Source of the DNA: Thermoplasmatota archaeon
Lineage (GTDB): Archaea; Thermoplasmatota; Penumbrarchaeia; Penumbrarchaeales; Penumbrarchaeaceae
Assembly (NCBI GenBank): GCA_049472195.1
Contig: JBLIRG010000002.1
Coordinates: 5,184-69,183 of the forward strand
Direction of reading: 5' to 3'
DNA length: 64,000 bases
Below the pieces are notes generated by a model that did not search any database, was not told where the DNA came from, and worked only from the letters and a program-made list of their open reading frames with translations. Below are positions 6,496 through 52,024 of this stretch, in pieces. Each line of letters starts with the position of its first letter. Positions within the stretch are counted from its first letter, which is position 1. Made by a program: the position numbers and the translations under genes.

Positions 6496-7375
6496 TATTT
6501 CCTTTCCGACCGTGTCCCTGGGAAGGATCGGGATCTATCCTGATCCCGCTAGATTCTCGAACCTGAAACCCCCGCTGATAATGGGGATCCTGAACGTAAC
6601 CCCCGATTCCTTCTCGGACGGCGGCATGTATCTGGATTCGGATGCCGCCGTTGAGAGGGGCTTGAAGATGGTTAGCGAGGGGGCGGATATAATCGATGTG
6701 GGTGGAGAGTCGACCCGCCCGTTTTCAGAAATCGTTCCCCCGGAGGTCGAGATCGAGAGGGTCCTTCCGGTCATCAGGGAGCTGGTAAGGAAAATACCGG
6801 TTCCGGTATCAATCGATACCAGAAATCCGGAAACGGCATCGGAATGCATCGGAGCGGGCGCGTCCATGGTAAATGATGTGAACGGCCTGAGGGAGGAGGG
6901 AATGGATGAACTGGTTGCGAGGACGGGGGTGAGCGCCGTTATCATGCACATGATGGGCTCCCCAAAGGACATGCAGGTCTCACCTCGATACGAAGATGTT
7001 GTGGCGGTGGTGCGGGATTTCCTCGATGAGCGTGTCGAACGCATGACGGATCTGGGTGTTGACCGCGGCCGGCTCATAGTGGATCCCGGCATCGGATTCG
7101 GAAAGACCGTTGAACATAATCTCGATCTCATAGCGAACATCAAGGTCCTCAAGCAGATCGGTTGTCCCGTTCTGATCGGGGCGTCAAGGAAGTCTTTCAT
7201 CGGGAAGATCCTTGGCACGGAGACCGACGAGAGGCTGGCAGGATCCCTTGCTGCAGCGTTGGAAAGTGTACGCCGGGGCGCCGACATAGTAAGGGTTCAC
7301 GATGTTTTAGAGACAAAGAGGGCGCTGATGATAACATACGCATTGGAAAATCCCGGTTTATTCGAATCCTTGTAG
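6485..7375 (+). CDS. folP: Dihydropteroate synthase
   Basis: IMGILNVTPDSFSDGG, DVGGESTRP, SIDT, DPGIGFGK, GASRKSFIG and VRVHDV motifs. Overlaps the topA stop by 11 nt. Confidence 0.93.
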   Translation: MTDSISFPTVSLGRIGIYPDPARFSNLKPPLIMGILNVTPDSFSDGGMYLDSDAAVERGLKMVSEGADIIDVGGESTRPFSEIVPPEVEIERVLPVIRELVRKIPVPVSIDTRNPETASECIGAGASMVNDVNGLREEGMDELVARTGVSAVIMHMMGSPKDMQVSPRYEDVVAVVRDFLDERVERMTDLGVDRGRLIVDPGIGFGKTVEHNLDLIANIKVLKQIGCPVLIGASRKSFIGKILGTETDERLAGSLAAALESVRRGADIVRVHDVLETKRALMITYALENPGLFESL

Positions 7376-7377
7376 AA

Positions 7378-7418
7378 ATAAAAAAAATAAAAGCGCCGGA
7401 ATATTTCACCGACGCTTT
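7378..7418 (-). terminator. Hairpin plus U-tract terminator after FG-GAP paralog 1
   Basis: On the minus strand, aaagcgtcgg pairs with ccggcgcttt (one U-G), followed by a T-rich run (A-tract at 7376-7392 on the + strand). Confidence 0.65.
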
Positions 7419-7433
7419 CACACGGCCGTTTAC

Positions 7434-10400
7434 CTACAGCTGTTTCTTCGTTCCGCAGAGCGGGCACTCGACCTGGGCTGCTCCCGGAGGTACTTCGACG
7501 GACGAACCGCAGAGATCGCACAGGATTGTCGTACCAGCTGATTCGGCATTCCCCGGGAGGTTCGGGGTTGCGGCCAGGTCCTCCGGTTTCGGTATCTTAC
7601 CGGGAACGGATCCTGCCGGAGCCGGTGCTTTTGCGGGAGCCGGAGCGGGCGCGGGGGCCGGTTCGGGCTGGACCGGTTTCGCCGGTTCCTCAGTTTCTTC
7701 AGGCTCGGTCTTTTCCCTCTTCTTCTCTTTCTCGACCCTTCCCCGGGGGACAACCTGCTGGGCCGATACGGGAGGCAGCGAGAGACCCATTTCCTTGACC
7801 GAGGGCAGAAGCTCCGGTTCAATTCCGGTAAGCGCCTCGTACCTCTGCACCATGCTTGCTTCCCTGGTCACATTCCTTGTAACCCTGTTCTTCTCCAAGG
7901 TCGACCTCTTCTTGAGCACGATCATCACCGCAACGATGAGTATCAGTATGGCAAGGACAACTATCCAGACCATGAACCCGAAGTAGGTGGAATATCCCGT
8001 TTCGTCCTCATCATCGATGATGAGCGGATTCAGTGGGTCCGCATCGAGATAATCGTTCATGCCGTCCTGATCCGTGTCGGCGATCTTCGGATTCGTTCCA
8101 AGAGAGAGCTCCTCTTGATCCGTCAGTTCATCTCCGTCGTCGTCAAGGTCCTCTCCATCCGGCAGACCGTCCCCGTCGGTGTCTATCTCGCTCGGGTGTA
8201 TCTTCACGTAGAAGGATATCGAGTCCGTGATGGTGAACCAGCCGTCCGTGACATAGAGGGTGATCACGTGCACGCCCTGTCCTAGGCTACTTGCCTCCAC
8301 CTCGAAATCGGCCTCTTCGCTCAGTATCGTCTTGTTCGCGAGAACCCACTTGAACTGGAGATTATCCAGATCAGGATCGATGGAATCAGATCCCTCGAAC
8401 GAGATCTTCTGCTGTGTGTCGTACACCTCGTGCATCTCGGGTGCGGATATCGAGGCCAACGGGGGATTGTTGACTTCCTTGTATACTATGTTGATCGGGA
8501 AGTCGTCGGAGACGACGAAACCGTTTCCGGCAATGTCCTTTACCCTCCATCTGACATAGTTGGTGGATCCGGGTTCGAACAGAAGTTCAGTCGATGATGC
8601 CAGGATGGTATCTGAATCATCCGTGAGACCCGCAGATATCCAGCCGCCGTAGTTGGATATGCCGTCTCGGGATACGGAATACTGTATGGTCGATGCGTCG
8701 ACTCCCGAGAGGTCCAGTCCCTGATCCTCGATGATTATGGTGGCGGTGATCCTGCTGTCCTCCTGGGGCTCCGGATCGGGAGTCGGATCCGAGAATGTGG
8801 GTGCCTGAATATCCACCCATGCATTGGCAGGATTCCGGCTGATCGCTTCCTTCTCGAAATCCGGCCGGCTCTCCTCGGCTTTCTCCCTCGCCATGTTGTC
8901 GGTGAGGTTTACCGTGTCCCTGTAGTGTATATACAGATCCTCGACCTTCTGATCCACATCGATGACCTTCGTGGTCCCGCGGTTTCCCGCCTCGTCGGCT
9001 ACCGACCACCATATGAAGTTCTCGGTTCCCTCAGAAAGCTGGACGGGAACCGATAAGGTGTAAACGTAGTTTTCACCTCTGTCAAGTGACAGGATCGTAT
9101 ACAGCGCCCTGACGCCGTCGTTCTCCCACATCTCCTCGGTAGGTTCGCCGTTCATGTTGTCGGTTACCAGATATTTCAAGGTGGATAGGTCCAGCATCGG
9201 GCTGTTATCGCCGACGACCAGATCGCTTATGGAAACCCTGAGCTCCACCTCCTTGGAGTTGAACCATATGTTACCTGTATAGGAGGGATAGTGATTGAAC
9301 AGTGTCAGGTCCTCCCTGTCGATAACGATGGACTTGATACCCCTCCTTCCGGGATTTCCTGCCTCGTCAATGCCCCATATCTGGATGGTATAGACTCCGC
9401 TCTCCCCGAGGGTCAGTTCCGTGAACCTGTCCTCGGTGTCGCCGGTTACCATGAAGGAGCCGGGGCCCCTGACCTGGTATTTGTAACCGATGACGCCTAC
9501 CTGGGTGTCGAAGGCAGGATCCCAGGAGATCCATACCTGGTTGTCGTTGTCCCACCTGCCCTCGGGATCATCGATGGAATCGGCGTGGAACTTCAGGTTC
9601 TGTGGCGCAAACGGTCCATCGAAATCGAGGCTGACGTAGAATCCGGGAATATTGGATACGGACGTGGCGTGCAGCTCGTACTCGGGATAGAGTATCTGTT
9701 CCACCCACAGCCGGAATATGCCCGAATCGACATTTGTCGGTATTCTGATATCTATCTCCAATCCGGCGCTGGATCTGTTCTCGAACACCCTGAGGTAGTT
9801 GTCCTTGACCCTCACGAAGAACTTGTCGTTTCCGGGAGATACGTCCGTTTCCTCGTATACCGCTCTAAGGCCTGTTATCCTCAGAGGCTCACCGCCGGAT
9901 AGGACAGCTCCTCTCTCAAGCTGGCTGTCTCCAAGCATAACCTTCATGTCGATATTATCGAACGTCAGGTCCTTCTCGACCCGAAGCATGTCCTCCCTCG
10001 TCTCCGTCTTCAAGAAGCGCCCCATAACGATGTTGAAGATCACATCGAATGGGTCCTGTGTCAGGAAATTCCTGTTGATACGGAAAGACAGGTTCAGTTC
10101 GGCATAGTGATAACCCGATGTTGTGAAGTCCGAATGTTCCGGGACCACCTCAAGGCCGTTCTCGTAACTGTCGATAATGTAATAGGTATCGTTCTGGGGC
10201 GAATAGCCGAATATGTAGCTGAGACCGGACAACTGACCCTTGAGCTTGAATTCTATGATTATTTCGGATGTCTGGTACACGGTCCATGAATTCGTGAAGT
10301 TCGTGTAGAAGGTGTATATTCCGCTTCCGATCTTGTTCGTGTCATTTCTGCCCTTTCCTCCGGCCTCGGCGCAGAGGATATTCCCCCCCTCGCCGTCTCC

Positions 10401-12188
10401 GTTGGAGATATCGAACGAAAGGACCTCCGAACTGGATGGCTGGGTCAGGAACAGATATGCCGCTCCCCGGTAATATTGGCTGGATTCGTAAGGATATCCG
10501 TAGGCGCCGACAAGTATATCGGCCACCCCGTCGTTGTTTATGTCGCCTGATCCGAAATTATCGTAGGCGTAATAGCCCAGATAATTATAGGTATAATAAC
10601 CCTGAACCGTCCAGCTCATATCGCTCCACGAATAACTGCTTCCCCATTGAGAAGCACTCATTCCATAGAACAGTCCGACTGTTCCCGCATAGTTCTGGTT
10701 CCTTCCGTTTGGTACATTATACGCACCCAGCAGTATGTCGTCAATTCCGTCACCGTCGAAATCGTCGATGTGGGATTGGCACATGTACGAACTGCTTCTG
10801 GGTCCTTTGATCTTGGCAGTGGAAATGCTGTTCAGATTGCAGTAATATCCGCCGTAGGGATATGAATTGTGAAATGTGTCCTTGTACTCCGAAACATCTG
10901 ACTTCCCCCAGATGATATTTGCCGTCCCTGTATAGGAATCGGAAGATGCCCTGTCCATGATTACAAGATCATCGAAACCGTCGCCGTTGAGATCCCCCAT
11001 GGAAGGATTGTAACCGGTATAGGCGGATGATTCGCGCTTGGTGAACATCATGTAATCTCCCTGGCGGGCCAGCATGTCATAGTGCCCTCCCCACTGCATC
11101 CATTCCGATCTCGTTCTTCCCTCGATCAGGTAGGTGGCTCCTGCGTAGGTATACCGCGAGGATGTTGTGTAGTACAGGTAGGTATAGTAACCCGCACCTA
11201 TGACAAGGTCCGTTCTTCCGTCTCCGTTGAAATCCCCGGAATCGAAGGCGTCTCCGTTTCCGTATCCCATTCTGGTGTACATGTAACCGCTGTTGCCGCA
11301 CGGGGCCCATGCTTTGATCCTGAGGTAGCCGTCACCGACGGGATCCTTGTTATTGCAGTTGATGGATCCTCCGGTGGCCTTCCATTCATTCTGGGTCCTC
11401 CCCCAGAAAACAAATGATAGTCCGGTCCAGTTGTACCTTACCCGCCAGCTGAGACCGCCCCAGTTTATATTCACGTAATACGGATATGAGTATTGCTGAC
11501 ACCAATAAGGGGCGGTTACCAGCAGATCACCTTTTCCGTCATCATCGATGTCCTCGATTCCCACATTGTAACCAAAGTAAGCATATCCTCCTCCGTACGC
11601 TCCGCGTTCACCAAGCAATTTGACATCGGGTGTCGTGTAGGATGCGCTGGTCCATTCCTCCCTTCCGAAATACAGATATGCCTCCCCGATGTAGCTGTTT
11701 GCATAATAGCTTCCGATGAGAATATCATCGATCCCGTCGCCGTCCACATCTCCCACCGCGACTGTTCCACCGGCATACCTGGAGCCGGTAGGTTTCAACG
11801 TGACATCGGCGTCCTTCTCGTCAAGGTTGGATCCGGTATTGGTCATGCCGAAGTATATCCTGACCTCTCCGCTGTAGCTCGAAGCGCCCCTGGCGCCGAC
11901 GATTATATCATTGTAACCGTCGCCGTTGACGTCCCCGATCTCGCACGCGGATCCTGTATAATCGTAATTTGTTGTGGAGGTGAACATCTGATCAGGTTCA
12001 TCCCCGTTCCACAAATTGACCGTGCCGGTCAATCGACCGTTGTCGTTGTTCAAAGCAACTTGTTCATCATTCGAAATCTCGTCCTCCTCGGAACTAACGT
12101 TCAATGTTGCCAATCCCGATATCATCAGAATGACAACGACAAGTCCCGCAAGGATGCCGGATAACGTGTAACGTAACCCTGGTTTCAA
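7434..12188 (-). CDS. Integrin-alpha-like surface receptor, paralog 1: 7 FG-GAP repeats, Ig/Fn3 stalk, TSP3-like repeats, TM, Pro-rich tail and Zn ribbon
   Basis: Seven DxDxDG blades (GDVNGDG, GDVDGDG, EDIDDDG, GDFNGDG, GDLNGDG, DDFDGDG, GDINNDG). DTDGDGLPDGEDLDDDGD repeat and TM FMVWIVVLAILILIVAVMIV. Ends with CDLCG..ECPLCG. TTG start with GGAGGTGA SD at 12193-12200. Confidence 0.88.
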   Translation of the reverse strand: MKPGLRYTLSGILAGLVVVILMISGLATLNVSSEEDEISNDEQVALNNDNGRLTGTVNLWNGDEPDQMFTSTTNYDYTGSACEIGDVNGDGYNDIIVGARGASSYSGEVRIYFGMTNTGSNLDEKDADVTLKPTGSRYAGGTVAVGDVDGDGIDDILIGSYYANSYIGEAYLYFGREEWTSASYTTPDVKLLGERGAYGGGYAYFGYNVGIEDIDDDGKGDLLVTAPYWCQQYSYPYYVNINWGGLSWRVRYNWTGLSFVFWGRTQNEWKATGGSINCNNKDPVGDGYLRIKAWAPCGNSGYMYTRMGYGNGDAFDSGDFNGDGRTDLVIGAGYYTYLYYTTSSRYTYAGATYLIEGRTRSEWMQWGGHYDMLARQGDYMMFTKRESSAYTGYNPSMGDLNGDGFDDLVIMDRASSDSYTGTANIIWGKSDVSEYKDTFHNSYPYGGYYCNLNSISTAKIKGPRSSSYMCQSHIDDFDGDGIDDILLGAYNVPNGRNQNYAGTVGLFYGMSASQWGSSYSWSDMSWTVQGYYTYNYLGYYAYDNFGSGDINNDGVADILVGAYGYPYESSQYYRGAAYLFLTQPSSSEVLSFDISNGDGEGGNILCAEAGGKGRNDTNKIGSGIYTFYTNFTNSWTVYQTSEIIIEFKLKGQLSGLSYIFGYSPQNDTYYIIDSYENGLEVVPEHSDFTTSGYHYAELNLSFRINRNFLTQDPFDVIFNIVMGRFLKTETREDMLRVEKDLTFDNIDMKVMLGDSQLERGAVLSGGEPLRITGLRAVYEETDVSPGNDKFFVRVKDNYLRVFENRSSAGLEIDIRIPTNVDSGIFRLWVEQILYPEYELHATSVSNIPGFYVSLDFDGPFAPQNLKFHADSIDDPEGRWDNDNQVWISWDPAFDTQVGVIGYKYQVRGPGSFMVTGDTEDRFTELTLGESGVYTIQIWGIDEAGNPGRRGIKSIVIDREDLTLFNHYPSYTGNIWFNSKEVELRVSISDLVVGDNSPMLDLSTLKYLVTDNMNGEPTEEMWENDGVRALYTILSLDRGENYVYTLSVPVQLSEGTENFIWWSVADEAGNRGTTKVIDVDQKVEDLYIHYRDTVNLTDNMAREKAEESRPDFEKEAISRNPANAWVDIQAPTFSDPTPDPEPQEDSRITATIIIEDQGLDLSGVDASTIQYSVSRDGISNYGGWISAGLTDDSDTILASSTELLFEPGSTNYVRWRVKDIAGNGFVVSDDFPINIVYKEVNNPPLASISAPEMHEVYDTQQKISFEGSDSIDPDLDNLQFKWVLANKTILSEEADFEVEASSLGQGVHVITLYVTDGWFTITDSISFYVKIHPSEIDTDGDGLPDGEDLDDDGDELTDQEELSLGTNPKIADTDQDGMNDYLDADPLNPLIIDDEDETGYSTYFGFMVWIVVLAILILIVAVMIVLKKRSTLEKNRVTRNVTREASMVQRYEALTGIEPELLPSVKEMGLSLPPVSAQQVVPRGRVEKEKKREKTEPEETEEPAKPVQPEPAPAPAPAPAKAPAPAGSVPGKIPKPEDLAATPNLPGNAESAGTTILCDLCGSSVEVPPGAAQVECPLCGTKKQL

Positions 12189-12326: not shown

Positions 12327-12785
12327 TTACATAAGAGAGAGGATGTCGGTTTTGAATTTTATGATCCTATGCTCGCATCGAATAATGTCCGCATGCCCCT
12401 CCACGCCGAGCAGGAGCCAGTAAGCATCATCCCCGAAATCGTATATGGTGCGTCTGAAATCCTGATATACGAAAAAATTCAGATCCCCCTCGTTGAACAC
12501 GCTCTCGTCTGTAACGTTCGCCCGGTGGAAGAACGGGTTCAATCTGTATCGGAGTTCCTCCTGGTCTTCCCTGGACATGTCCACTGTCCTGAAGAATTCC
12601 TCGTTCATGTTGTGCTGGTAAAGCCTGATAAGATTTGCATAGAATGCCCCGGTGACGTAGTTCACGGCATCAACTACCAGGGGGCCGTAGTGATGTGTCG
12701 ATGATCTAATCTTCCGTTCCGTCATATCGATCAATCTGCACAGGTTGTCGTAAAACTCGTTTGAGGATGATTCATCCACTGCCAT
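12327..12785 (-). CDS. Hypothetical protein, 152 aa, between the two tandem FG-GAP genes
   Basis: ATG preceded by GGGTGGAG, with genome-like codon usage. No family recognised. Confidence 0.7.
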   Translation of the reverse strand: MAVDESSSNEFYDNLCRLIDMTERKIRSSTHHYGPLVVDAVNYVTGAFYANLIRLYQHNMNEEFFRTVDMSREDQEELRYRLNPFFHRANVTDESVFNEGDLNFFVYQDFRRTIYDFGDDAYWLLLGVEGHADIIRCEHRIIKFKTDILSLM

Positions 12786-12940: not shown

Positions 12941-15900
12941 TCACAGGTTCTTCTTCTCACCGCAGAGCGGGCACTCTACCTGGGATACGCCCGGCAGAAC
13001 CTCAATGGAGGATCCGCAGAGGTCGCATGTGGTGGTGGAGGCTCCCGTGTCAGCTGCACCGGAAGAACCGGGAAGGTTCGGCGTCGCAGTGAGGTCCTCG
13101 GGTTTCGGTACCTGACCGGGGACTTTTCCCGCCGGGGCGGGCGCCCTCCCGGGAGCGGGTGCCGGTTTGGGTGCCGGAGCGGGTTTGGGCACTGTCGGGG
13201 ACGGCTCAGGCTCCGCGGTTTTTACAGGTTCCTCTTCCTTCTTGGGTTCCTTGATGTCATGAAGCTTCTTTGCTTTACCCCGTGGTAGGACCTGTTGAGC
13301 GGCGATCGGAGGCAGGGATACTCCCATGTCCTTTACGGAGGGAAGGAGCTCGGCTTCGATGCCGGTGAGCGCTTCATACCTCTGGACGACCTCCGATTCC
13401 CTGGCGACGGATCTCGTGATCCTATTCTTCTCGACCGTGGACCTCTTCTTGAGAACCACCATCACAGCGACCAGAAGTATCAGGATTGCCAGGACAACCA
13501 CCCAGATCATGAAGGAATAGTAGGTGGAATACCCTTCATCCTTCTCCTTCTCGAAGACCAGGGGATTGAGCGGTTCGGGATCGAGATAGTCATCAATACC
13601 GTCCTGATCCGTGTCCTTTAGTTTCGGATTGGTTCCCATGGCGAGCTCCTCGAGATCAGACAATCTGTCGTTGTCATCATCGAGATCCTCGCCATCCGGC
13701 AGGCCGTCCCCGTCGGTATCGACCTCGTCCGGATGGATCTTCACGTAAAGCGATACCGAGTCTGTGATCGTGAACCATCCGTCGGTAACATACAGGGTGA
13801 TGACATGGACGCCCTCTCCGAGCCTGGCGGCCGGTATCTCGAAATCGGCCTTCTCGCTGAGGATCGTCTTGTTCGCCAGGACCCACTTGAACTGCAGATT
13901 ATCCAGGTCCGGATCGGTGGAATCCGATCCTTCGAAGGATATGGTCTGCTTAGTGTCGAACACATCCTGCATTTCGGGTGAGGATATCACTGCTATCGGG
14001 GGATTGTTCAGCGGAATGAACTCGATTATTATCGGATAGTCGTCGGAGACAACGAATCCGTTTCCGGCAACATCCTTTGCCCTCCACCTGATATAATTGG
14101 TGGAACCGGGTTCGAACAGAAGAACCGTGGTCGAGGCAAGGACCTGATCGGCATCGTCGCTCAATCCGGCGGAGATCCAGCCTCCGTAATTGGAAATTCC
14201 GTCCCGCGATATTGAGTACTGTATCGTCGATACATCGACCCCGGAGAGATCCACTCCCTTATCCCGGATGATCACCGTTGCGGTGATCCTGTTGGTTTCC
14301 TGGGGTTCCGGGTCCGGTGTGGGATCGGAGAACATCGGGGCCTGAATATCGACCCAGGCGTTGGCAGGATTCTCACTCATCGCTTTCTTTTCCAGGGTGG
14401 CCCTGCTCTCCTCGGCCTTCTCCCTTGCCATGTTATCCGTGAGGTTCATGGTGTCCCTGTAATATACGTAGAGATCCTCGACCTCGGCATCAACGTCCAG
14501 TATCCGTGTGATCCCCTCGTTTCCGGCCTCGTCCTTCACTGACCACCAGATGTAGTTCTCCTTTCCTTCCTTCAGCTGAACCGGGGCCGATATGGTGTAT
14601 ATGTATCTCTCCCCGCGGTCGATCGACATGAGCGTATACTGAGCTTTGACCCCGTCCGCTTCCCACATCTCCTCGGTTGGTTCACCGGTCATCTGATCCG
14701 TCACGAGGTATCTCAGGGTCGAGAGGTCGAGCATCGGGCCGTTGTCACCGACCATAAGATCGCTTATCGAAGCCCTTAGGTCGACCTCCTTGGAGTTGAA
14801 CCACATATCACCCATGTATGTGGGATAGTGGTTGACGATGGAGAGATCCTCATGGTCGATCACGATGGATTTGATGGCCCTGATTCCAGGATTGTTCGCC
14901 TCGTCCATACCCCAGATCTGGATGGTGTAGACACCGCTGCCACCGAGGGTGAGTTCTGTGAATCGGTCAACGGTATCACCCGTCACGAGGAAGGAGCCGG
15001 GACCCCTGAGCTGGTATTTGTACCCGATCACATCCACCTGGGTATCGAAGGCAGGATCCCAGGAGATCCAGACCTGGTTGTCGTTATCCCATCTTCCCTC
15101 GGGATCGTCGATGGAATCGGCGTGGAACTTCAGGTTCTGGGGTGCTGACGGTCCTTCGAAATCCATGGTCACGTAGAAGCCTGGGACCGCTCCTTTTTCC
15201 TCTGCGTAAACCCCGTATTCGGGAGATATCATGATATTCACCCAGAACCGAAGGGTTCCCGAATCGACGTTGGTCGGAAGTATCATATTGATATCCATGC
15301 CCGCGGAGGAGTGGTTCTCGAAGACCCTCATGTAGTTATCGGTCACCCTGATGTAGTATTTGTCGTTGGACGGAGATACCTCCGTGTCCTCGTACACCAC
15401 CCTGAGTCCGGAGATCACCAGAGGATCTCCACCGGGTATGAAATCCCCTCTATTCACGGTTCTTCCTCCCTGTGTTACGGTCATGTCTATGTTGTTGAAA
15501 GTGATGTCCTTTTCCACCCTGAGCATTTCCTCTTCTACGTGGTAAACAACATCCCTGGACCGCACTATTCCGAACTTGACGTCGAAGGGATCCTGGGTCG
15601 GGAAGTTCCTGTTGATCCTGATCGAGATATTAATCTCCGCATCAAAATAGCCGTGTATCGTATAGTTGCATTTATCCTGTACCAGTTCTATGGCGTCGGC
15701 GAAATTATCTTTTATGTAGAAGGTATCGTTGATGGGATTGTATCCCATGCTGTAGGTTATTCCGGTCCATCCCCCTTTCAGAACGAACTCGAGAACGATC
15801 TCGTTTGCTTCCTTCACGGTCCACGAATCCGTATAATTCCCCCAGAACGTGTAGACGCCGTCGCCTATGGGATCCGCGCCTCCCACGCCGCCTGCTTCGG

Positions 15901-17671
15901 CGGTGAGGATGTTATTCTCCTCCCCGTCTCCGTCCTTCAGCTCGAATCCCTTGATCTCGAGGGCGGGAGGTTCTGTCAGGAACATGTAGACAGCACCGCA
16001 GTATGAAGTTGTCCCATAGGACCTGCCCTGTGCAGTAAGGACGATATCGGCTATGCTGTCATCGTTGAAATCCCCGCTGGACATGGACTGCAGGTAATAA
16101 TCACCAAGGTAACTGTATCGAGTCTCCCCCTGGACGGTCCAGTCGGCATCAGTCCATTTCAGATCCGATTGCCAATTGGCCTGTCCGTAGAACAGCCCAA
16201 CCCTTCCAGCATAGGTGTCGCTGTTATCATTGGGCATTCTGGACGGTGCAACGAGGAGATCTCCGTAACCGTCCCCGTCGAAGTCGTCGATCCAGTTGTG
16301 GGCCATGTAGCCACTGCTGGAGGTTCCGGAGATGGTCACATCCGTTACGTCTTTGATGTCGTTGTAATATCCGCCCGCGGGATAGCTGTCCCAGAATGTC
16401 GAGGTAAGGCTCGAGGTATCCGATCTTCCCCAAATGATGTAGCTCTGTCCCTCGTAATTTCCCGGCATCCGGTAAGAGCTGATGACGAGATCGTCATATC
16501 CGTCCCCGTTCAGATCTCCCAGTCTGGGATTGAATCCGGAGTAGGTGGAGCTCTCTCTCCTTGTGAAGAGCATGTAATCGCCGTTTCTGGCCATCATGTC
16601 GTAATGACCGCCCCACTGCATCCACTCCGATCTGGATCTTCCTGGAACTAGCCATGTCGCTCCGGTGTAGGAATACGATGAATAGGTAGAATAGTAAACA
16701 TAGCAGTAATAACCGGTCCCAAAGAGGATATCATTATAACCGTCACCGTCAAAATCACCGGAATGTGTGCTCTGGCCCCCGTAATATCCGAGTCTAGCGT
16801 ATCTGTAGGAACCGCCGGGCATCCAGCCCTTGATCCTTACGTACTGGTCCCCCGTGTAATCCTTGTTGTCGCAGTTTATGGTCCCGCCGATCGCGGTCCA
16901 TTCCGTTCTGGACCTACCCCAGAATATGAATGCTAGACCCGTGTAATTGTAATAGATATAGTTAGTGGTCCCTTTGAAATATTCGTTTCCGTTGACATAT
17001 TCATACCAGTAGGGCTCGGTTGCGATTATATCATCGTATCCGTCGTTATCCAGATCGTCCACCCAGACGTTGTCGCCGAAATACGATGAGGAGGACTGAC
17101 CGGTCTCACCGATGAATTTCAGATCGGGCGCCGTGTATGATTTTCCTTTGACCCAGTCCGTTCTTCCGTAGAACACGAAGGCTTCACCCTTGTAGCTGGA
17201 TCCGCCGTAGTTGCCCAGAGCGATATCGTCGATACCGTCGCCGTCCACGTCCCCGATGCCTATGGTGTCTCCAAGTCCGACGCCGCCGCTTGGTTTCAAG
17301 GTGACGTCGGCATCCTTGTATGACAGTGATCCTCCTGCCGTTATCATGCCGAAGTACACGTAGACCTCGTTGATCCCGTCGGCTCCCGTGACCATATCGT
17401 CGTATCCGTCCCCGTTCACGTCACCAACCGCAATTCCGGCGCCCATCCAGGCGCTTGATGTCGTGTGGTACATCATCTGGTCGGCGCTGCTCTCCCAGAG
17501 CTTCACATCTCCGGAAAGCCTGTTGGTTACGGGAAGCGGCTGTTCGTCGCCCGATCCGCCCTCGGTGACCGGTACGAACTCGATCACCGTCAGGCTGCTC
17601 AGAAGGAATAATGCCGCTATGAGAAACGGAATCATTCCCCGCTTTAAGGTTGTCTTGGATAAGCTTGTCAT
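12941..17671 (-). CDS. Integrin-alpha-like surface receptor, paralog 2 (same architecture as 7434-12188)
   Basis: Seven FG-GAP blades, a stalk colinear with paralog 1, TM FMIWVVVLAILILLVAVMVV, RYEALTGI and CDLCG..ECPLCG. ATG 17671 has a GGGGTGA SD. Confidence 0.88.
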   Translation of the reverse strand: MTSLSKTTLKRGMIPFLIAALFLLSSLTVIEFVPVTEGGSGDEQPLPVTNRLSGDVKLWESSADQMMYHTTSSAWMGAGIAVGDVNGDGYDDMVTGADGINEVYVYFGMITAGGSLSYKDADVTLKPSGGVGLGDTIGIGDVDGDGIDDIALGNYGGSSYKGEAFVFYGRTDWVKGKSYTAPDLKFIGETGQSSSSYFGDNVWVDDLDNDGYDDIIATEPYWYEYVNGNEYFKGTTNYIYYNYTGLAFIFWGRSRTEWTAIGGTINCDNKDYTGDQYVRIKGWMPGGSYRYARLGYYGGQSTHSGDFDGDGYNDILFGTGYYCYVYYSTYSSYSYTGATWLVPGRSRSEWMQWGGHYDMMARNGDYMLFTRRESSTYSGFNPRLGDLNGDGYDDLVISSYRMPGNYEGQSYIIWGRSDTSSLTSTFWDSYPAGGYYNDIKDVTDVTISGTSSSGYMAHNWIDDFDGDGYGDLLVAPSRMPNDNSDTYAGRVGLFYGQANWQSDLKWTDADWTVQGETRYSYLGDYYLQSMSSGDFNDDSIADIVLTAQGRSYGTTSYCGAVYMFLTEPPALEIKGFELKDGDGEENNILTAEAGGVGGADPIGDGVYTFWGNYTDSWTVKEANEIVLEFVLKGGWTGITYSMGYNPINDTFYIKDNFADAIELVQDKCNYTIHGYFDAEINISIRINRNFPTQDPFDVKFGIVRSRDVVYHVEEEMLRVEKDITFNNIDMTVTQGGRTVNRGDFIPGGDPLVISGLRVVYEDTEVSPSNDKYYIRVTDNYMRVFENHSSAGMDINMILPTNVDSGTLRFWVNIMISPEYGVYAEEKGAVPGFYVTMDFEGPSAPQNLKFHADSIDDPEGRWDNDNQVWISWDPAFDTQVDVIGYKYQLRGPGSFLVTGDTVDRFTELTLGGSGVYTIQIWGMDEANNPGIRAIKSIVIDHEDLSIVNHYPTYMGDMWFNSKEVDLRASISDLMVGDNGPMLDLSTLRYLVTDQMTGEPTEEMWEADGVKAQYTLMSIDRGERYIYTISAPVQLKEGKENYIWWSVKDEAGNEGITRILDVDAEVEDLYVYYRDTMNLTDNMAREKAEESRATLEKKAMSENPANAWVDIQAPMFSDPTPDPEPQETNRITATVIIRDKGVDLSGVDVSTIQYSISRDGISNYGGWISAGLSDDADQVLASTTVLLFEPGSTNYIRWRAKDVAGNGFVVSDDYPIIIEFIPLNNPPIAVISSPEMQDVFDTKQTISFEGSDSTDPDLDNLQFKWVLANKTILSEKADFEIPAARLGEGVHVITLYVTDGWFTITDSVSLYVKIHPDEVDTDGDGLPDGEDLDDDNDRLSDLEELAMGTNPKLKDTDQDGIDDYLDPEPLNPLVFEKEKDEGYSTYYSFMIWVVVLAILILLVAVMVVLKKRSTVEKNRITRSVARESEVVQRYEALTGIEAELLPSVKDMGVSLPPIAAQQVLPRGKAKKLHDIKEPKKEEEPVKTAEPEPSPTVPKPAPAPKPAPAPGRAPAPAGKVPGQVPKPEDLTATPNLPGSSGAADTGASTTTCDLCGSSIEVLPGVSQVECPLCGEKKNL

Positions 17672-17858
17672 TATGTTCACCCCTATATACTCTATGCTGC
17701 TCCATTTGAGCATCAAAATTTTACAAATACAGGCCCCATTTTATAATATATAAAAGGCACAGTTGGATTTTTTCATTTTATATAAAGTTTACATGTTTAT
17801 ATGGCTGTTGTGACCGATTTCATCCAATTTGAATGGATGAATTCATCCTCAATTTTTA

Positions 17859-19397
17859 CTAGAAACCTCCCACCTCCCACGGGGGATAGGCGGAGGTCTG
17901 AAGGAAACCGAAGAGGAATACGGATATCCATGTAAGCGGGGGATCGGAGGCGAGTGCAAAGGGAAATATCCAGAGAAGATACCACGGATGAAACTGGGGC
18001 GAGCAGATGAGAAGGAGGATCAGCACGGAAGCGGAGACCGTGGGGATCAAAATGACGGGAATATGACGCTTCAACATTTTTGTGCCTTCTTGAATCCCGT
18101 TCTCCCCTCCCTCGGAATCGAAGCTGACGAAGAGATATACGGATAGACCTATGAACAGGATCGAGCGCCCCAGTGAGAACATTCCCGATGTCCATTCGTA
18201 GATGGAATGGGATCCGGCCTTGATTATGGATATGCCGTAGATCAGCATGATTATGATGAGAAGCGAGGTCAGAACGGCGATCAGCGAAAGGTCTTTCCTT
18301 TTTATCTTTCCCGTTGCCCCACGGTAGTAGAGATACAGCGCTCCCGCCGCCAGCGCAAGGTTTAGAATTACCGCAGCAGCCGAGGTTGGGAATCCGGCAA
18401 TATCAAGGATCAGCTCCATTAGGAACCTCACCGAGAGCCCGCTGTACCATCCTGCCGTCTGATATACGAAATAATCCAGAAGAAGTACGGGATCCCTGAT
18501 AAGGATCGGGAGGGATGAAATAAGGAAAACGGATACGAACCCGGCGAGAAGGATTCCCCTGTCCTTCCATTTCCTGAAACCGAGGAGAAAGACGGGTAGA
18601 AGGAAGATCGGATACAGCTTGAGGGAGAATCCCGCCCCCAGAAAGAGGCCCGATATGATCGGCTTTCCCCTGATAAGGAAGAGGTAGGAAAGGAGAACCG
18701 AGATCACCACCACGGGATCGAAATGCCCCGCAAGCCCCGACTCCAGTATCCCGACCGGCCACAGGGAATATGCCAAGGCACCGATCCCCCAACCGATCGG
18801 GGGCAATCCGCCATCAGACGATCCGTCAGTTACACGGTTGAGGTATCCACTATCCATGCCGGCTCTGTATATGCCAAGCATTACCACCGGTATCGCTGAA
18901 TTTACCAGGACGAAGATTATTCTGAAGGACGCCTCGGTCGGTCCGAATACGACCGAGATGAGTCCGACCATCCAGATGTAGAGCGGCGGCTTGTTTACGG
19001 GGAAATCCTGATAGGGGAATTTCCCGTCGATCATGTTCTCCCCCCGCATATGCAGCCACATTATGTCCTGGGAGAGTGCCGGTTCCCTGAGAAGAAAGGT
19101 CAGCTGAAGAAACAGCGCGATACCGAAAAGCAGGAGCGAGGAACGAAGCGGTCCGAGGGACATAAGCTTCCCGGGATATGACGACCTGGCGAAGAAAAAG
19201 ACCGCCGCGGCGAATGATATGTACCATACCGCGTTTGCTGACTGAAAACGGAGCCATGAATCTCCCCCCGCCGCCATAAAAACATAGGACAGCATGTATA
19301 TGGTGAGCGATACGAAGAAAAGCGCCTCGCTTGACAACCGGTTCCTTCCCGTCCCGGCTGTCTTGATCAACCGCCGTTCGGCGATATCCATGGCCAT
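17859..19397 (-). CDS. GT-C fold polytopic glycosyltransferase (GT87/DUF2029-like)
   Basis: Many TM helices; FPYQDFPVNKPP, HFDPV, SLKLYP and PQFHPWYLLW motifs. Confidence 0.7.
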   Translation of the reverse strand: MAMDIAERRLIKTAGTGRNRLSSEALFFVSLTIYMLSYVFMAAGGDSWLRFQSANAVWYISFAAAVFFFARSSYPGKLMSLGPLRSSLLLFGIALFLQLTFLLREPALSQDIMWLHMRGENMIDGKFPYQDFPVNKPPLYIWMVGLISVVFGPTEASFRIIFVLVNSAIPVVMLGIYRAGMDSGYLNRVTDGSSDGGLPPIGWGIGALAYSLWPVGILESGLAGHFDPVVVISVLLSYLFLIRGKPIISGLFLGAGFSLKLYPIFLLPVFLLGFRKWKDRGILLAGFVSVFLISSLPILIRDPVLLLDYFVYQTAGWYSGLSVRFLMELILDIAGFPTSAAAVILNLALAAGALYLYYRGATGKIKRKDLSLIAVLTSLLIIIMLIYGISIIKAGSHSIYEWTSGMFSLGRSILFIGLSVYLFVSFDSEGGENGIQEGTKMLKRHIPVILIPTVSASVLILLLICSPQFHPWYLLWIFPFALASDPPLTWISVFLFGFLQTSAYPPWEVGGF

Positions 19398-19456
19398 ATG
19401 AAGGAATTACCTCATTTAAACATAACCGCGGTAATCATGACGGGATCATTAAAGGA

Positions 19457-20416
19457 TCATTTGCCCTTTCCACTTATTATCCTGTAGTGGGATCTCGTTA
19501 TCCTTTCGGTTCCCACAGCAGAGAGCAGAAGCTCGGCTGTCAAACCGACGAACAGGGTTGTTATGCCGAAGAGATACAAAACGGCTCCGAGAACGGTTCC
19601 AGGATTGAGAAAGTTGGATCCGTCGGCTATCAGATAATAGAGCGAGAATCCCATTGGAATTGATCCCAAGATCATGGAGAATACGAACCCTCTTGCGAAG
19701 AAATGAAGGGGCGATCGGCTGTATTTCGTGAGGAATGTTATGGTTACAAGGTCGATGAAACCCTTGAAGAGCCTCTCGATCCCGTATTTGGATTTCCCCG
19801 TTGTTCTCTTGTGGTGTTTGACCTTTATCTCGCCGACCCGAAACCCCCTCCAGTGGGCTTTCACGGGAAGATATCTGTGGAACTCCCCGTAGACGTCGAG
19901 GGATCTGACAACCTCCCTGCGGTATGCCTTGAACCCGCAGTTGTTGTCGTGGATCTTCACACCCGTCATCTTCCGGATCAACCAGTTGAAGAATTTCGAA
20001 GGTATCTTCTTCCCCATGGGGTCCAGTCTCTGGTATTTCCAGCCGGAGACGAGGTCATATCCCTCATCCAGCTTCTTGAGGAACCTTCCGATCTCCCTAG
20101 GATCGTCCTGCAGGTCCCCGTCCATGGTTATGACGATATCCCCTTTGACATTCTCGAATCCGGCCCTGAGAGCGTTTGCCTTTCCGAAATTCCGGTAGAA
20201 AGTTATTACGGATACCCTGCCGTCCTTTCGTATCAGGCCCTGGATCTTCTTCAGGGTCGAATCCGTTGATCCGTCGTCCACGAAGATGATCTCGTAGGAT
20301 CTGCCGAGCCTGTCGAGCTCCTCCTTGAGCTTGGAATAGAGCGCCTTGACGCTTCCCTCCTCGTTGTAGACCGGAATCACTATGCTGAGGTCCTTCCCTG
20401 ACAAATGATCAACCAC
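19457..20416 (-). CDS. GT2 polyprenol-phosphate glycosyltransferase (DPM synthase/ArnC-like)
   Basis: SIVIPVYNEE, FVDDGSTD, RNFGKANAL, MDGDLQDDP and DNNCGFKAYRR motifs, plus two C-terminal TMs. Confidence 0.9.
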   Translation of the reverse strand: MVDHLSGKDLSIVIPVYNEEGSVKALYSKLKEELDRLGRSYEIIFVDDGSTDSTLKKIQGLIRKDGRVSVITFYRNFGKANALRAGFENVKGDIVITMDGDLQDDPREIGRFLKKLDEGYDLVSGWKYQRLDPMGKKIPSKFFNWLIRKMTGVKIHDNNCGFKAYRREVVRSLDVYGEFHRYLPVKAHWRGFRVGEIKVKHHKRTTGKSKYGIERLFKGFIDLVTITFLTKYSRSPLHFFARGFVFSMILGSIPMGFSLYYLIADGSNFLNPGTVLGAVLYLFGITTLFVGLTAELLLSAVGTERITRSHYRIISGKGK

Positions 20417-20525
20417 CGGATCGATTATGAACTGACATTTGGACCAAAGAATGAAGGTTTTTAAACTTTACCTGACGGATCCCCCGATTGCGGACGTTAT
20501 CCCGGCAGTATGGACCAGACAGCGG

Positions 20526-21590
20526 TCAATTTCTGCTCCTCCTCCGAAGGTAGAACAGGGAGATCAAACCCAGGGGTATCGAGAGCCAGAGCGAGGTTGC
20601 CACCATTGCGATCGATGCCGATGTGGATATGCCTTCATCATCCGTCAGGAGGTATAGTACTGATGATGATCCCAGCAGGTTGCCTGCCCCGATCGGGAGG
20701 ATGAACCCGAGTATGTTGGCTATCGCGATTCCGGCGACCGCTCCGGGGAAAGCGACGTTCGCGTCAACCGGAAGAGCCAGTATGACAAGATACAGCCGGA
20801 CCGCCTCGTTGAACCAGATCGCTATGGTCATGATAATGATGCCCGCAAAGGACATCCTGTCCCTGGTCATCCTCGATATCGAGTCATGGAACTTCTTTGC
20901 CGACTCATCGAGTTTGCCGACCAGCTTTGACGAGAATTTCAGCGCTCTTCCTCTCAGGAAGCGATCCGTGAACCCCCCCAAGATCCTGATGGAAGCGGAC
21001 ATGAGCCTTCGGTTCGATATCAGGACAATCGCCAGAATGACAAGTATCCCCACGATGATGATCCCGGCGATCATGCCGATCGTATCATCGAACCCGATCT
21101 TCCATATCAGATAGACGGCCCCAAGTATTGCGAATGTCAGTATTGTCAGGATATCCAGGGATTTCTCCGAGAAGATCGATGCGGCGCCCACGGAGATCCG
21201 TGTATCCGTATGTTCCCTCAGAAGGTAGGCCCTGACCGGCTCGCCTCCGATCTTGCCCGGCGTGGAATTGTTAAGGGCGAGGGAAGCAAGGAATATGGGA
21301 AGTGTGATCCAGCCGGTCCTTTTCCGGGTCATGCCCCTTATGATGGCATTCCATCTGAGAGCCTTCATGGCGGTATTCAGAAAATACAATCCGAGGATGA
21401 GCAGAAGCAGGCCGATATCGATCCCACTGATCGTATCGAGGGTCCTTCTAACGTTGGCGTTGATAACGAGCATGATGATGAGGACGAGGGCAAGACCTAG
21501 ATAGAGAAGGTCCTTCCATCCCATACTTATCTTCAATCCGCCCTTTTTTCCCTCGGCCAACGGCATGAATTTTTCTCCGGAATGATCCAT
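20526..21590 (-). CDS. Flippase-like membrane protein (UPF0104 / LPG-synthase TM family)
   Basis: LRW, NNSTPGKIGGEPVRAYLL and SEKSLD motifs; about 8 TMs. Confidence 0.85.
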   Translation of the reverse strand: MDHSGEKFMPLAEGKKGGLKISMGWKDLLYLGLALVLIIMLVINANVRRTLDTISGIDIGLLLLILGLYFLNTAMKALRWNAIIRGMTRKRTGWITLPIFLASLALNNSTPGKIGGEPVRAYLLREHTDTRISVGAASIFSEKSLDILTILTFAILGAVYLIWKIGFDDTIGMIAGIIIVGILVILAIVLISNRRLMSASIRILGGFTDRFLRGRALKFSSKLVGKLDESAKKFHDSISRMTRDRMSFAGIIIMTIAIWFNEAVRLYLVILALPVDANVAFPGAVAGIAIANILGFILPIGAGNLLGSSSVLYLLTDDEGISTSASIAMVATSLWLSIPLGLISLFYLRRRSRN

Positions 21591-24985: not shown

Positions 24986-27900
24986 TCAGTTATACCGGTT
25001 CCCGCCTGCAGGTGGCAGAGCGGGGGTCTGATATCCGGGACCGATCGCCGAGGTCTGGTTTGGATAGAGACCAGCGGGCGGAGGGGGCATGGCCGGAGCA
25101 GTCGGAGCCTTTCTCATCTCCAGTATCACCAGCAGGGATAAGGTGATGAACAGGACAGCTCCCACGAGGAGGATGATCAACGGGATCAGGGGAAAGACGT
25201 CTTCCTTCACGGAAGATCCCGGATATGAGTTCTTATCGGTGGGATCGGAGCCTCCGAGGTACTCGTCCAGATTGGAATAGCCGTCGTAATCCGGGTCCTC
25301 CGACGCGTCGTCAACCTCGGGATTCAGGCCGTATCGGATCTCGAATGAATCGTTCATGCCGTCCCCGTCAGTGTCCTTGAACTTCGGATTTTGAAGGATC
25401 GAATCCAGGACAATTACGGAAAATGTCCTTCGGACCTTGTGCACTCCATCCCTCACGGTGAGAGTTATTAGGTGATCTCCGGCGGACAGGTAGAAAAAGG
25501 ATATTGCCGCCGTCCCGAGGGAGCCGTCAATGTTGGAGATCCACTGTACCTCGACATCCTCGTTTCCATCGGGATCATCGATCCTGACCTCGAAAGGTAT
25601 GGATTGATTGTCCAGATAACTGACGCCAAGCACGGGTTTCAGTATCTCGATGTCGGGGGGAGAGTCCACCCGTATCCGGTAGGTCATCGACGAGTTCCTC
25701 CCCACGTTGTCGTAGGCATCAATTCTGAGAAGGTTCTGATCCCCGGGGATCCATGAGGATTTGGTGATCTGTATCGACACCTCCTGATATCCAAGCGAGT
25801 TGTTGTAGGGTTCTGCCTCCAGCGGAATATCCGCGGAGAATGAGGTCCCGTTGTCGACGGAGTACCGGTATGTGATCCGGGTTGTATCCAGTCCGGATCC
25901 AAGCCAGTCATGAATCTTCACATCGATCGGCACGTCTGATGTCTCGAGCCAATCGATCACCGTGCCCTCCTCGTCGACCTCAAGGTCGTCAAGGCTTATA
26001 TCTGGAGCCCTTGAGTCCACCCATACTCTGAACTCATCTGACAGGGTCTCGCCGGATCTGGCCATGTCCTGTCCCTTGATGACCACAAGGTTCCTCCTTC
26101 CCTCAACCAGACTGGGCCTTATCTGGAATTCAAGTTCGCCGCCGGTGTTGTATTCCTGACATGAGTTCCAATCGCTCCATGTCATCCCGTCGTCCCTGGA
26201 AGCTCTGAACAGCAGGGACCTGCCCTCTATCCCCGAAAGTTCGTCCGATGCGCGGAAAGTGATGAACGGGGTCTTACTCTCCGCCCACTCTCCCTGTGCC
26301 GGGTCTATCATCTCATATGACGGTCCGTGAAGGTCAACGAGGAACCTGGTCCAGGTCGGCGGTCCGATATTCCCGACAGCGTCTACGGCCCGGATGGTTA
26401 TATTGATCTCCCCCTCCGGGAGTTCGTCCGACAGCCTTCTTCCTATGTGGTAGTTGAGCCTGTCCGCGGGAACTGTGTTCTTGGATCGGAATTCACCCGA
26501 AACCGCCTCGATTATGTAACTTCCGAGGCCCGAACCTCCGTCATCCGATGCCTCCCATTCGACGAACATATTCCTGTCGTTGTCCATTATGCTGGCGTTC
26601 TCATCAAGGGAATCGGCATATGTTTTGATGAATCCGACGGCGGCCGGTTTATCCGTGTCAATTCTCAGGCTGAACGTCTTGTTCGACGATTTCCCGGATA
26701 CGAGGTTGAGGAACGTCAATCCGGTTATGTAGAAGGTAAACTGCATCTGTGCGGTGAAATCCACCGCTGTCCACGGTGCCGAAAGCCAGTTTCCCTGGGG
26801 AATGAAGTAATCCCTGTCCGTGTTGTAATTGTCCTTGATGCTGATCTGGGCAACGTAAGGCCGCGGTTGAACGTTGGAATCCTCGTAAACGATCATTATA
26901 CCTGTGAACTGTATGTTTTCCCTTCCCTTGACCCAGTCGTTATCCGTCAGCAGGGTTCCGGAGCTGGTCTTGCATACCAGGTCAGTGTCGCTCCATTCGA
27001 AATCGTTCTCGACGCGGTAGATATCGGCCGCTTCGCTGAAACCCGGTATCGCGGAAAGCCCGGTTGCCGTAACGCTCACGTTCCTGGCGGTCTCGGACGG
27101 ATAGTCGATCTTGAAATCGATGTAGAAATCTACCTTGATGGTATCGGGCCCGATCACCGACACCTGGGACAGGATCTCGTTGAGGGTGGCGAATTTCATA
27201 TCTCCTGTACCTCCTGGCTGATAGAAGGTGCTGTTGGAGTGGAAGTAGATGAACCGCAGCCTTTCGAAATGCGGCGAGAGTGTCAGAAACACCCTGTTTA
27301 TGTGATCCTCTCCCTTCGTATGGGAGATCATCGACGAGAAGACGTAATCCTTCGATTCCGCATATACCATATCTCCCCGGCTTCCGTCGCCGTTGGTCAG
27401 TTCCGGTTCGGTTACTTCGATATCTCCGGTTGTGAAGGCGTAGGCATAGGGAGGCTGGAAAATATCCGTGCCGGTGGGTTCGTACTTGTATTCGTGGATC
27501 GAGATACCCCGGGTCCCGGCCGGATTCTCGATCCCGATCACCGCATAGGATCCGACTCCTCCCCATGTATAAACCGATTGATACTGATACTTGATCATTC
27601 CTCCCTTGAAAAGCAGCGCCTCGTATTTGCCGCCGTTTCGGGTGATCCATTCGATGATGAAAACCTCTTCGCCGTCCACCTCGGTGTGCAGGGTGAATAT
27701 GGTCTTCGGATTGTAGTAATCGTAAGCATAATCCTGGCCCCAATATACGGCAAGAATCCCTTTCGGGTCGTTGGTGGACGGCATCGGGTGGTTCGAATAG
27801 TAGGTAAAACTGTTTACATTTGTCTCAACGAAGGAGAATGCGATTCGATTGGAAACGTATACCTTATTGTAGCTCGTCTCATAATATGTAAACGAGAACG

Positions 27901-28141: not shown

Positions 28142-28252
28142 CTGATCTCCTCCGATACGATCGATCGATTTTTGCACCGAGACCGGTACCTGTAACCGTT
28201 TTTATCATTTAATATTAGGTGATATATACTATTTGTTGTAGAGACGCCCCCG

Positions 28253-31324: not shown

Positions 31325-31421
31325 CTGGAGCACCACCGTTGTAGCGGTTTACAGAAACAATAGCCTCCATAAAACATTAACCGTTCCCTGTGCAGGATGA
31401 GGATATCTAGAGGCAAAGGGA

Positions 31422-46737: not shown

Positions 46738-47042
46738 ATCATCGGAGATTTTATTGAAATAAGAAGTCTCATAATTAGAAGGTGGATGGAGTTTTCATCC
46801 GGTTCATCGAAGATAAAACAAGTTTTCCTCAGAGATGATGTTATCCTTGTCCAGTTCAATAATTTGATGGACCCCCGGACCGAATTTTTCTTTCAAAGGA
46901 CTTTTTTAAAAAGGCGAGGTATAAATACATGGAAAAAACCATGCCAATACCCATTAATAAAGCTCGAGGACTGGAATCAAATATTGGTAATATTGTGGAT
47001 TAACCGATCAATGGACCGGTTAGCATGTCTGGGGTGTTCAAA

Positions 47043-51918: not shown

Positions 51919-52024
51919 CTGTTTTTATTCAAATTGATAGGTTGATCTATTCATTTTCGTTCAGGTAATTTCGACCAGTGGTTTCATATTGGCGGAGTTG
52001 ACTTACCCCTCGGTGAAGATCAAG

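Follow-up and report, generated by a model that had tools for sequence, protein, structure and literature searches.

We analyzed a 64,000-nucleotide stretch of DNA (the window; positions 5,184 to 69,183 of contig JBLIRG010000002.1, GenBank assembly GCA_049472195.1) from an uncultured Thermoplasmatota archaeon. Three paralogous FG-GAP surface proteins encoded there (P1, P2, and P3) end in tails of 159-170 aa that begin with LKKRS or LKMRS. Our results showed that each tail carries conserved islands on a variable tether, and that its two main islands have different histories: a juxtamembrane block occurs in this FG-GAP family alone, whereas a terminal zinc ribbon is a generic tail element. By analogy with bacterial ribbon-bearing membrane proteins, we favor, at a probability of about 45%, the reading that the tail is a cytoplasmic docking or switch platform of a type I surface protein.

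Translation of 7434-12188 (-), 12941-17716 (-), and 47025-51860 (+) reproduced exactly the tail strings that a first-pass annotation of this DNA had quoted for the three paralogs. The juxtamembrane stretch and the C-terminal ribbon are, respectively, VLKKRSTLEKNRV..VQRYEALTGIEPELLP and CDLCGSSVEVPPGAAQVECPLCGTKKQL in P1, VLKKRSTVEKNRI..VQRYEALTGIEAELLP and CDLCGSSIEVLPGVSQVECPLCGEKKNL in P2, and VLKMRSDRERIE..LKRYEVLTGIPTNDLP and CSLCGSEVPVDDGASTAECPLCGEIINL in P3. The P1 gene (7434-12188, -) is a single open frame of 1584 codons for an FG-GAP surface protein of 1584 aa, which consists of a hydrophobic N-terminal signal or anchor, the FG-GAP propeller, a long stalk, Asp-rich TSP3-like repeats, one transmembrane (TM) helix (7917-7985, -; YFGFMVWIVVLAILILIVAVMIV), and the tail. 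Pfam detected FG-GAP repeats in the three paralogs with E values of 4.9e-40 (P1, seven stretches), 1.2e-28, and 5e-22, as in a seven-bladed propeller head. Besides the stop codon (7434-7436), the segment 7434-7960 (-) contains all 160 residues of the tail (7437-7916) and 15 of the TM helix. This helix is preceded by the acidic stretch DDEDETGYS and followed by the basic KKRS, which fits the positive-inside rule; because of these flanks and of the four-cysteine metal site, the tail should be cytoplasmic. P2 (12941-17716, -; 1591 aa) lies in tandem with P1 and has its tail at 12944-13453, with the juxtamembrane block at 13280-13453 and the ribbon at 12944-13027. In P3 (47025-51860, +; 1611 aa) the tail occupies 51381-51857, the block 51381-51554, and the ribbon 51774-51857.

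Tails were aligned in sets of 30 to 37 sequences taken from the window, eight database orthologues, and related genomes. All 37 full tails could be aligned, with R, T, G, L, P, L, and the four cysteines invariant. The alignments resolved four conserved elements, namely the juxtamembrane block, a spacer, a third short island, and the terminal ribbon. The first-pass annotation had described two islands; both are conserved, but the first is a continuous block of 58 aa rather than a short motif, and the third island, of PxPEDL type, has to be added.

The juxtamembrane block of P1 (7743-7916, -; LKKRSTLEKNRVTRNVTREASMVQRYEALTGIEPELLPSVKEMGLSLPPVSAQQVVPR) is formed by a long helix capped by LTG and a subsequent amphipathic segment. 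Its core motif is RYEALTGI in P1 (7821-7844, -) and RYExLTG[IV] across 30 tails, in which R, T, and G did not vary and Y/F, E, and L hardly did. The amphipathic segment after the LTG[IV] cap has hydrophobic residues at i, i+3/4 spacing, and its sequence separates two subfamilies: type A, which includes P1 and P2, reads LLPxVKEMGxSLPPxAAQQV, and type B, which includes P3, reads DLPAIEAVQWALPxVIxEASxF. The preceding helix is strongly basic and very Arg-rich in type B (RRNLRRNRRNIKR), whereas in type A it is not especially basic. Both types were found in both families of the order, often within one genome, and the split between them is therefore old. The contigs of metagenome-assembled genomes (MAGs) often ended within tail-coding DNA and left a ribbon alone at the contig end (G006:C90, C99, and C13; G010:C76 and C44; G002:C91; G015:C232). 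These assembly breaks seem to be caused by the repetitive Pro/Ala spacer or by near-identical paralog tails, and the FG-GAP family is therefore under-counted.

The spacer (7605-7742, -, in P1) is a low-complexity Pro/Ala/Glu/Lys sequence that varied in length and composition, with a top-residue frequency of 0.29 and a gap fraction of 0.27; it was Pro/Ala/Glu-rich in P1 and P2 and acidic and Pro-rich in P3. The open reading frames (ORFs) antisense to this region, 7162-7986 (+) and 7526-7798 (+), were discarded as Gly/Ala-rich reverse readings of the Pro/Ala spacer. For the third island (7551-7604, -; PGKIPKPEDLAATPNLPG), the type A consensus is PG.IP.PE[DE]L..T..LPG; its type B counterpart consists of DDLLP and, after it, KP[DE]L.DMEVP.P. 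A similar sequence, ALPPAPPEDLPE, occurs in a protein from another family of the same class, L079 (G032:C34), a stalk homologue of 1305 aa whose long Pro-rich tail ends in an MJ0042-like ribbon. PxPEDL-like sequences may thus be a recurrent linker motif that accompanies ribbons.

At the very end of P1 lies the four-cysteine (C4) zinc ribbon (7437-7520, -). Its pattern over 37 aligned ribbons is C-x-[LI]-C-G-S-x-[IVF]-x-[IV]-x2-G-x4-E-C-P-L-C-G-E-x3-[LIV], and the protein terminates with L, I, or V six residues past the last cysteine. The four cysteines were invariant in all 37 sequences, and both the C-x2-C-x14-C-x2-C spacing and the distance to the C-terminus were fixed in 34 of them.

Structure prediction with AF2 from three sequences was poor (predicted local distance difference test score, pLDDT, 58), and the model used here was built from the alignment of 30 tails. 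In this model the end of the TM helix through RYEALTG forms one helix (residues 2-34; pLDDT 80-92), and the ribbon is made of four short strands at a pLDDT of about 90, with the two CxxC knuckles and the two-hairpin fold of a generic C4 ribbon. A short helix was placed at the PEDL of the third island, and the remainder of the juxtamembrane block and the spacer had a pLDDT of about 55. The conserved islands on a disordered tether described by the first-pass annotation are borne out by this model, in which the islands are ordered.

The islands were more conserved than the ectodomain in five of six comparisons, with identities of 36-78% for the block, 50-79% for the ribbon, and 29-62% for the ectodomain. 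Between P1 and P2, identity was 62% over the whole protein, 78% in the block, and 79% in the ribbon; between P1 and P3, the corresponding values were 29%, 36%, and 57%; and between P1 and the orthologues P0007 and P0011 they were 43-48%, 57-59%, and 75-79%. The exception was P0023, in which block and ectodomain were equal at 29%, and for P0025 the ribbon value was lost to an end gap. The proportion of nonsynonymous differences (pN) between the tandem paralogs P1 and P2 was 0.129 in the juxtamembrane block, 0.13 in the ribbon, 0.244 over the whole gene, 0.269 in the spacer, and 0.33 in the propeller, in ratios that are rough, as synonymous sites are saturated in this pair. Conservation of the islands above that of the ectodomain is what a functional cytoplasmic interaction surface predicts. 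The earlier proposal that the islands are adaptor-binding sites is plausible on these grounds, although no adaptor or partner was identified. A contig identical to 7647-7912 in a marine-sediment metatranscriptome is weak support for transcription, as it is a single short contig that may come from DNA carry-over.

A profile of the juxtamembrane block alone (59 columns), the search suggested by the first-pass annotation, confirmed conservation far above chance level and well beyond the window, and delimited the phyletic range of the element. In the 2.79-Mb genome it matched only P1, P2, and P3. Matches were obtained in 26 of 61 relatives. Of these, 24 belong to the same order, which is represented by 26 genomes, and the other two, elsewhere in the phylum, gave matches at chance level (E about 0.005). 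Among 1.84 billion proteins the profile retrieved about 17 true cluster representatives, each with the block at the C-terminus of a protein of 1350-1610 aa or of a contig-truncated fragment, and all full-length carriers scanned have FG-GAP repeats. The remaining weak matches were a repeat ORF, a TPR protein, and a tail-fibre-like repeat. Thus, the block is private to the FG-GAP family of one order of uncultured Thermoplasmatota. We also considered that the tail might be a mobile module mounted on other heads, and rejected this, as the block was never found without an FG-GAP head; of the tail elements, the ribbon alone is modular. A similarity between the block and TPR repeats was weak: hhalign aligned the block to a TPR helix B-loop-helix A unit over 28 columns with a probability of 55%, a weak score that would correspond to one unit at most and to no repeat array, and the one TPR protein of the library search was reached at E=5.8e-4 through six weak stretches.

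The ribbon has a much wider occurrence. A C4 ribbon forms the end of 36 ORFs of 150 aa or more in the genome of this archaeon. Fourteen of these ORFs encode large single-pass surface proteins (650-2100 aa), each with a signal sequence, a single TM helix, and a tail of 50-215 aa. At least ten proteins of this kind are encoded outside the window (contigs C16, C21, C22, C32, C47, C57, C63, C83, C88, and C107), with one to three C4 ribbons each. The window itself encodes a CARDB-repeat surface protein (2-2521, +; a 1906-aa frame in the full contig; Pfam CARDB E=1.1e-50) with one TM helix and a tail that carries three zinc ribbons (Zn_ribbon_3, DZR) and a poly-Glu linker; throughout the family, its gene is conserved as a neighbor of the type A FG-GAP gene. 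In a distant family of the phylum, the ribbon profile matched unrelated proteins of ~1600 aa whose C-terminal part consists of a TM helix, an acidic linker, and the ribbon. Of the four genomes that encode them, three gave no match to the P1 ectodomain, and in the fourth two weak matches were located on another contig. The profile also matched multi-ribbon tails elsewhere in the class. Within this lineage, a ribbon at the tail end looks like a convention that surface proteins follow across the proteome. A linker with one or more MJ0042-like zinc ribbons was also observed at the end of a DnaK-like chaperone (C98:992-3268, +), a polytopic rhomboid-like membrane protein (C100:1471-2496, +), and a TPR protein (C13:24383-25789, -), so the ribbon appendage is not confined to surface proteins.

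The juxtamembrane block and the ribbon thus have separate histories, and the single conserved module of the first-pass annotation has to be qualified: its ordered islands are real, but the word module is misleading, since one island is private and the other is generic. A NIDO-headed neighbor (24986-28177, -) shares the stalk with the FG-GAP proteins and has another head and a short Pro-rich tail. In other families of the class, the full-length homologues lack the juxtamembrane block, and their tails are rich in Pro and Gln. Together with the NIDO-headed protein, two more single-pass surface proteins of about 1000 aa are encoded in the window (28253-31336, -, and 34553-37612, +), and all three have tails that are short or Pro-rich and carry neither a ribbon nor a RYExLTGI block. 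In the literature that we searched, cytoplasmic zinc-ribbon tails on archaeal surface proteins were not described. As far as we found, the FG-GAP tail is a lineage-specific elaboration of a recurrent, apparently undescribed theme, that of cytoplasmic zinc-ribbon tails on Thermoplasmatota surface proteins.

The best sequence matches of the terminal ribbon in the PDB were LysW (5k2m_E, E=3.3e-5) and RpoP (RNA polymerase subunit P). With LSD1-type fingers the element shares the C-x2-C-x14-C-x2-C spacing and the GA.SV.C signature. Ten of 16 ribbons matched zf-LSD1 (PF06943; best E=9.6e-7), and the P1 ribbon alone reached 20.4 bits against a cut-off of 20.2 but only 15.8 bits within the whole tail. 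LysW, which reads CPVCGSEIEI..VECPVCG, is among the closest sequence patterns; the FG-GAP ribbon, however, is the last element of its protein, lacks the C-terminal acidic acceptor tail of LysW/ArgW, and scored 15.8 bits with NF041070, for which the cut-off is 75. The ribbons of LysW, RpoP, and the LSD1 type are protein-binding ribbons. Short Cys-rich profiles converge easily, and homology to LysW or LSD1 is not established by these matches. The ribbon was also below the MJ0042/Zn_ribbon_4 thresholds (PF13717, 16.2 bits versus 30.3), and TIGR02098 gave no match for the P1 and P3 tails; for comparison, the multi-ribbon tail of another protein of this genome stood at 19.5 versus 20.9 in the MJ0042-type model scan. 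A Foldseek search of the AF2 model against the PDB returned nothing below E=0.7, and only generic ribbons were retrieved (HOIL-1 RING2, HVO_2753, TMEM55B, LysW). From its sequence we assign the element only as a probable C4 zinc ribbon of the generic archaeal kind.

Two bacterial systems resemble the FG-GAP tail in layout. GltJ of Myxococcus xanthus is a membrane protein of the bacterial focal adhesion in which a ribbon binds a motif of its own linker until it is displaced by MglA-GTP, and then recruits MglB (PMC11135422). Like the FG-GAP tail, GltJ combines a cytoplasmic four-cysteine ribbon, a flexible linker with a conserved binding motif, and the TM segment of an envelope-spanning protein of adhesion or motility; in GltJ the ribbon and the linker motif work as protein-binding sites and as a switch. 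The GltJ ribbon, however, is N-terminal and works with a GYF domain, MglA-GTP, and MglB, whereas that of the FG-GAP proteins is C-terminal, and the linker motifs have no sequence similarity to those of the FG-GAP tail. No GYF domain was matched by Pfam in the FG-GAP proteins. In Caulobacter crescentus, the ribbon of ZitP binds the cytoplasmic scaffold PopZ (PMC5182065, PMC5182063). ZitP is likewise a membrane-anchored, bitopic protein whose cytoplasmic ribbon recruits it to a scaffold, although this ribbon is N-terminal and of the MJ0042 type, unlike the C-terminal FG-GAP ribbons, which fall below the MJ0042 thresholds. By comparison of their layouts, ZitP and GltJ are closer known analogues of the FG-GAP tail than integrin tails are, in a likeness of logic and not of family. 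We know of no PopZ-like partner in archaea.

The first-pass annotation had compared the tail with the membrane-proximal motif of integrin alpha tails. Both proteins combine a propeller ectodomain of FG-GAP type with a single TM helix and a conserved cytoplasmic motif close to the membrane, which offers a functional analogy for transmembrane coupling. The FG-GAP tail, however, bears no sequence relation to the GFFKR motif and does not contain it, is ten times longer, and ends in a zinc ribbon. Thigh or calf leg domains (Integrin_A_Ig_1) were not detected by Pfam in the proteins or in a six-frame search of the genome, a search in which no positive control gave a signal. Integrin beta (PF00362) was not found in this genome either, in a search that was equally silent in the control genomes and with a MAG that is 86% complete. 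The tail is not homologous to integrin tails, and the resemblance is architectural only.

The genes around P1 and P2 are kept in order across the family: the CARDB giant with its ribbons, purP, a HAD-like gene, topA, folP, the FG-GAP type A gene, and genes for GT87-like, GT2, and LPG_synthase_TM-like proteins. The last three lie directly upstream of the FG-GAP pair at 17859-21590 (-), a position that is maintained across genera. Their products are a polytopic, GT87-like glycosyltransferase of 512 aa, a Dpm1-like enzyme of GT2 (319 aa), and a membrane protein of the LPG_synthase_TM family (354 aa). The three genes probably make up a glycosylation cassette dedicated to the surface protein, and glycosylation genes fit a surface protein that is itself glycosylated. 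A partner encoded next door was considered and rejected, as the conserved neighbors include no candidate cytoplasmic adaptor. Between P1 and P2, at 12330-12785 (-), there is a gene for a soluble orphan of 152 aa with no Pfam match, found with 51-63% identity in 12 other genomes, all of the same family; it was discarded as a partner because, although family-specific, it is located on other contigs elsewhere. P3 is preceded by a gene for a pentapeptide-repeat protein (45727-46425, +; Pfam E=6e-36) and followed by an M3 oligoendopeptidase-like gene (51989-53818).

Since the tail is better conserved than the outer domains, it probably docks a partner inside the cell; and since ordered, constrained islands sit on a disordered tether that ends in an element common to many surface proteins, a docking platform fits best. 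In the arrangement that we propose, the TM helix would run on as a basic, amphipathic juxtamembrane helix up to RYExLTG[IV]. A short amphipathic segment (LLPxVKEMGxSLPP in type A, DLPAIEAVQWALPxVI in type B) would follow, then a disordered spacer with one or two short linear motifs of PxPEDL type, and finally the four-cysteine ribbon at the protein end. The ribbon may be a common handle through which many surface proteins of the lineage bind a shared cytoplasmic factor or one another. The block and the linker motifs could bind one or more extra, family-specific partners, or might fold back to gate the ribbon as in GltJ.

Several results weigh against a docking or switch platform. No partner for the tail was identified, and the conserved neighborhood offers no plausible cytoplasmic adaptor gene. 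None of the 26 genomes of the order contained Roadblock/LC7 (PF03259), which does occur elsewhere in the phylum; an MglB-type ribbon partner is therefore excluded, and a MglA/MglB-type system as used by GltJ was rejected. AF2 gave no confident packing between the islands (predicted template modelling score, pTM, 0.30) and predicted no intramolecular contact between ribbon and motif. We infer both the cytoplasmic location and the binding of zinc.

Among the alternatives, a purely structural or topogenic tail is somewhat unlikely. In this case the helix and the amphipathic segment would lie on the inner leaflet, or would pair with another copy as a homo-oligomer or an A/B hetero-oligomer, and stabilize the single helix that anchors an ectodomain of 1400 aa in a cell without a wall; the ribbon would serve only as a stable cap or oligomerization knob, and no adaptor would be needed. 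The i, i+3/4 hydrophobic spacing and the basic helix of type B suit an acidic inner leaflet, the frequent co-occurrence of both types in one genome and in both families suits pairing, and no partner gene was found. This explanation does not, however, account for the invariant polar R, E, T, and G of RYExLTG, for the distal spacer motifs, or for a ribbon with an invariant C-terminal end that is at least 100 disordered residues from the membrane. Further, the stalk-sharing relatives anchor equally large ectodomains with short or Pro/Gln-rich tails, and, as a possible objection to obligatory A/B pairing in assemblies whose contigs often break inside the tail DNA, G008 (97% complete) showed type A only and G002 (93% complete) gave a type B block only, although a type A-like ribbon lies at a contig end.

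A GltJ-like autoinhibitory switch, in which the ribbon folds onto the LLPxVKEMG segment or the PxPEDL island and is released by a cytoplasmic ligand or by a change in the ectodomain or TM helix, so that signals pass inside-out or outside-in, appears quite unlikely. It would explain why the layout mirrors that of GltJ, with ribbon, flexible linker with a conserved motif, and TM helix; why ribbon and motifs change together between types A and B; and why a PPEDL-like motif recurs in the unrelated ribbon-ended tail of L079. The covariation between types, though, is fully explained by shared descent, the AF2 model has no confident contact between islands, and there is neither a GYF domain nor an MglB/Roadblock protein in the order. 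That the tail is a tether for nucleic acids or ribosomes is highly improbable. An Arg-rich helix and a ribbon could bind RNA, DNA, or ribosomes, for example to localize the translation of envelope proteins at the membrane, and the ribbon profile does match RpoP, Zn-ribbon RNA-binding proteins, and ribosomal ribbons weakly; such matches, however, are generic to all C4 ribbons, the helix is very Arg-rich in type B but not especially basic in type A, and the ribbon has an acidic or neutral surface (E before the third cysteine, GE after the fourth).

A docking or switch platform would bear on how archaea that lack a rigid wall link large surface adhesins to the cell interior. The tail is the most conserved part of a 1600-aa protein and its ribbon recurs on unrelated surface proteins, which suggests that envelope proteins share a receptor in the cytoplasm. 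More broadly, and at present with little likelihood, wall-less or S-layer-poor Thermoplasmatota may couple envelope to cytoplasm through an undescribed system in which surface proteins of many unrelated kinds all plug their C-terminal ribbons into a single scaffold, cytoskeletal element, or signaling factor of the cytoplasm. The FG-GAP family would be the most elaborate member of this system, an integrin-like two-way receptor in which the block and the PxPEDL motifs gate the ribbon. With only 160 aa, a modular build, and islands defined to the residue, the tail is a practical bait for partner searches. If a partner is found, transmembrane coupling in archaea would become directly testable, and it would show whether an integrin-like architecture also works like an integrin.

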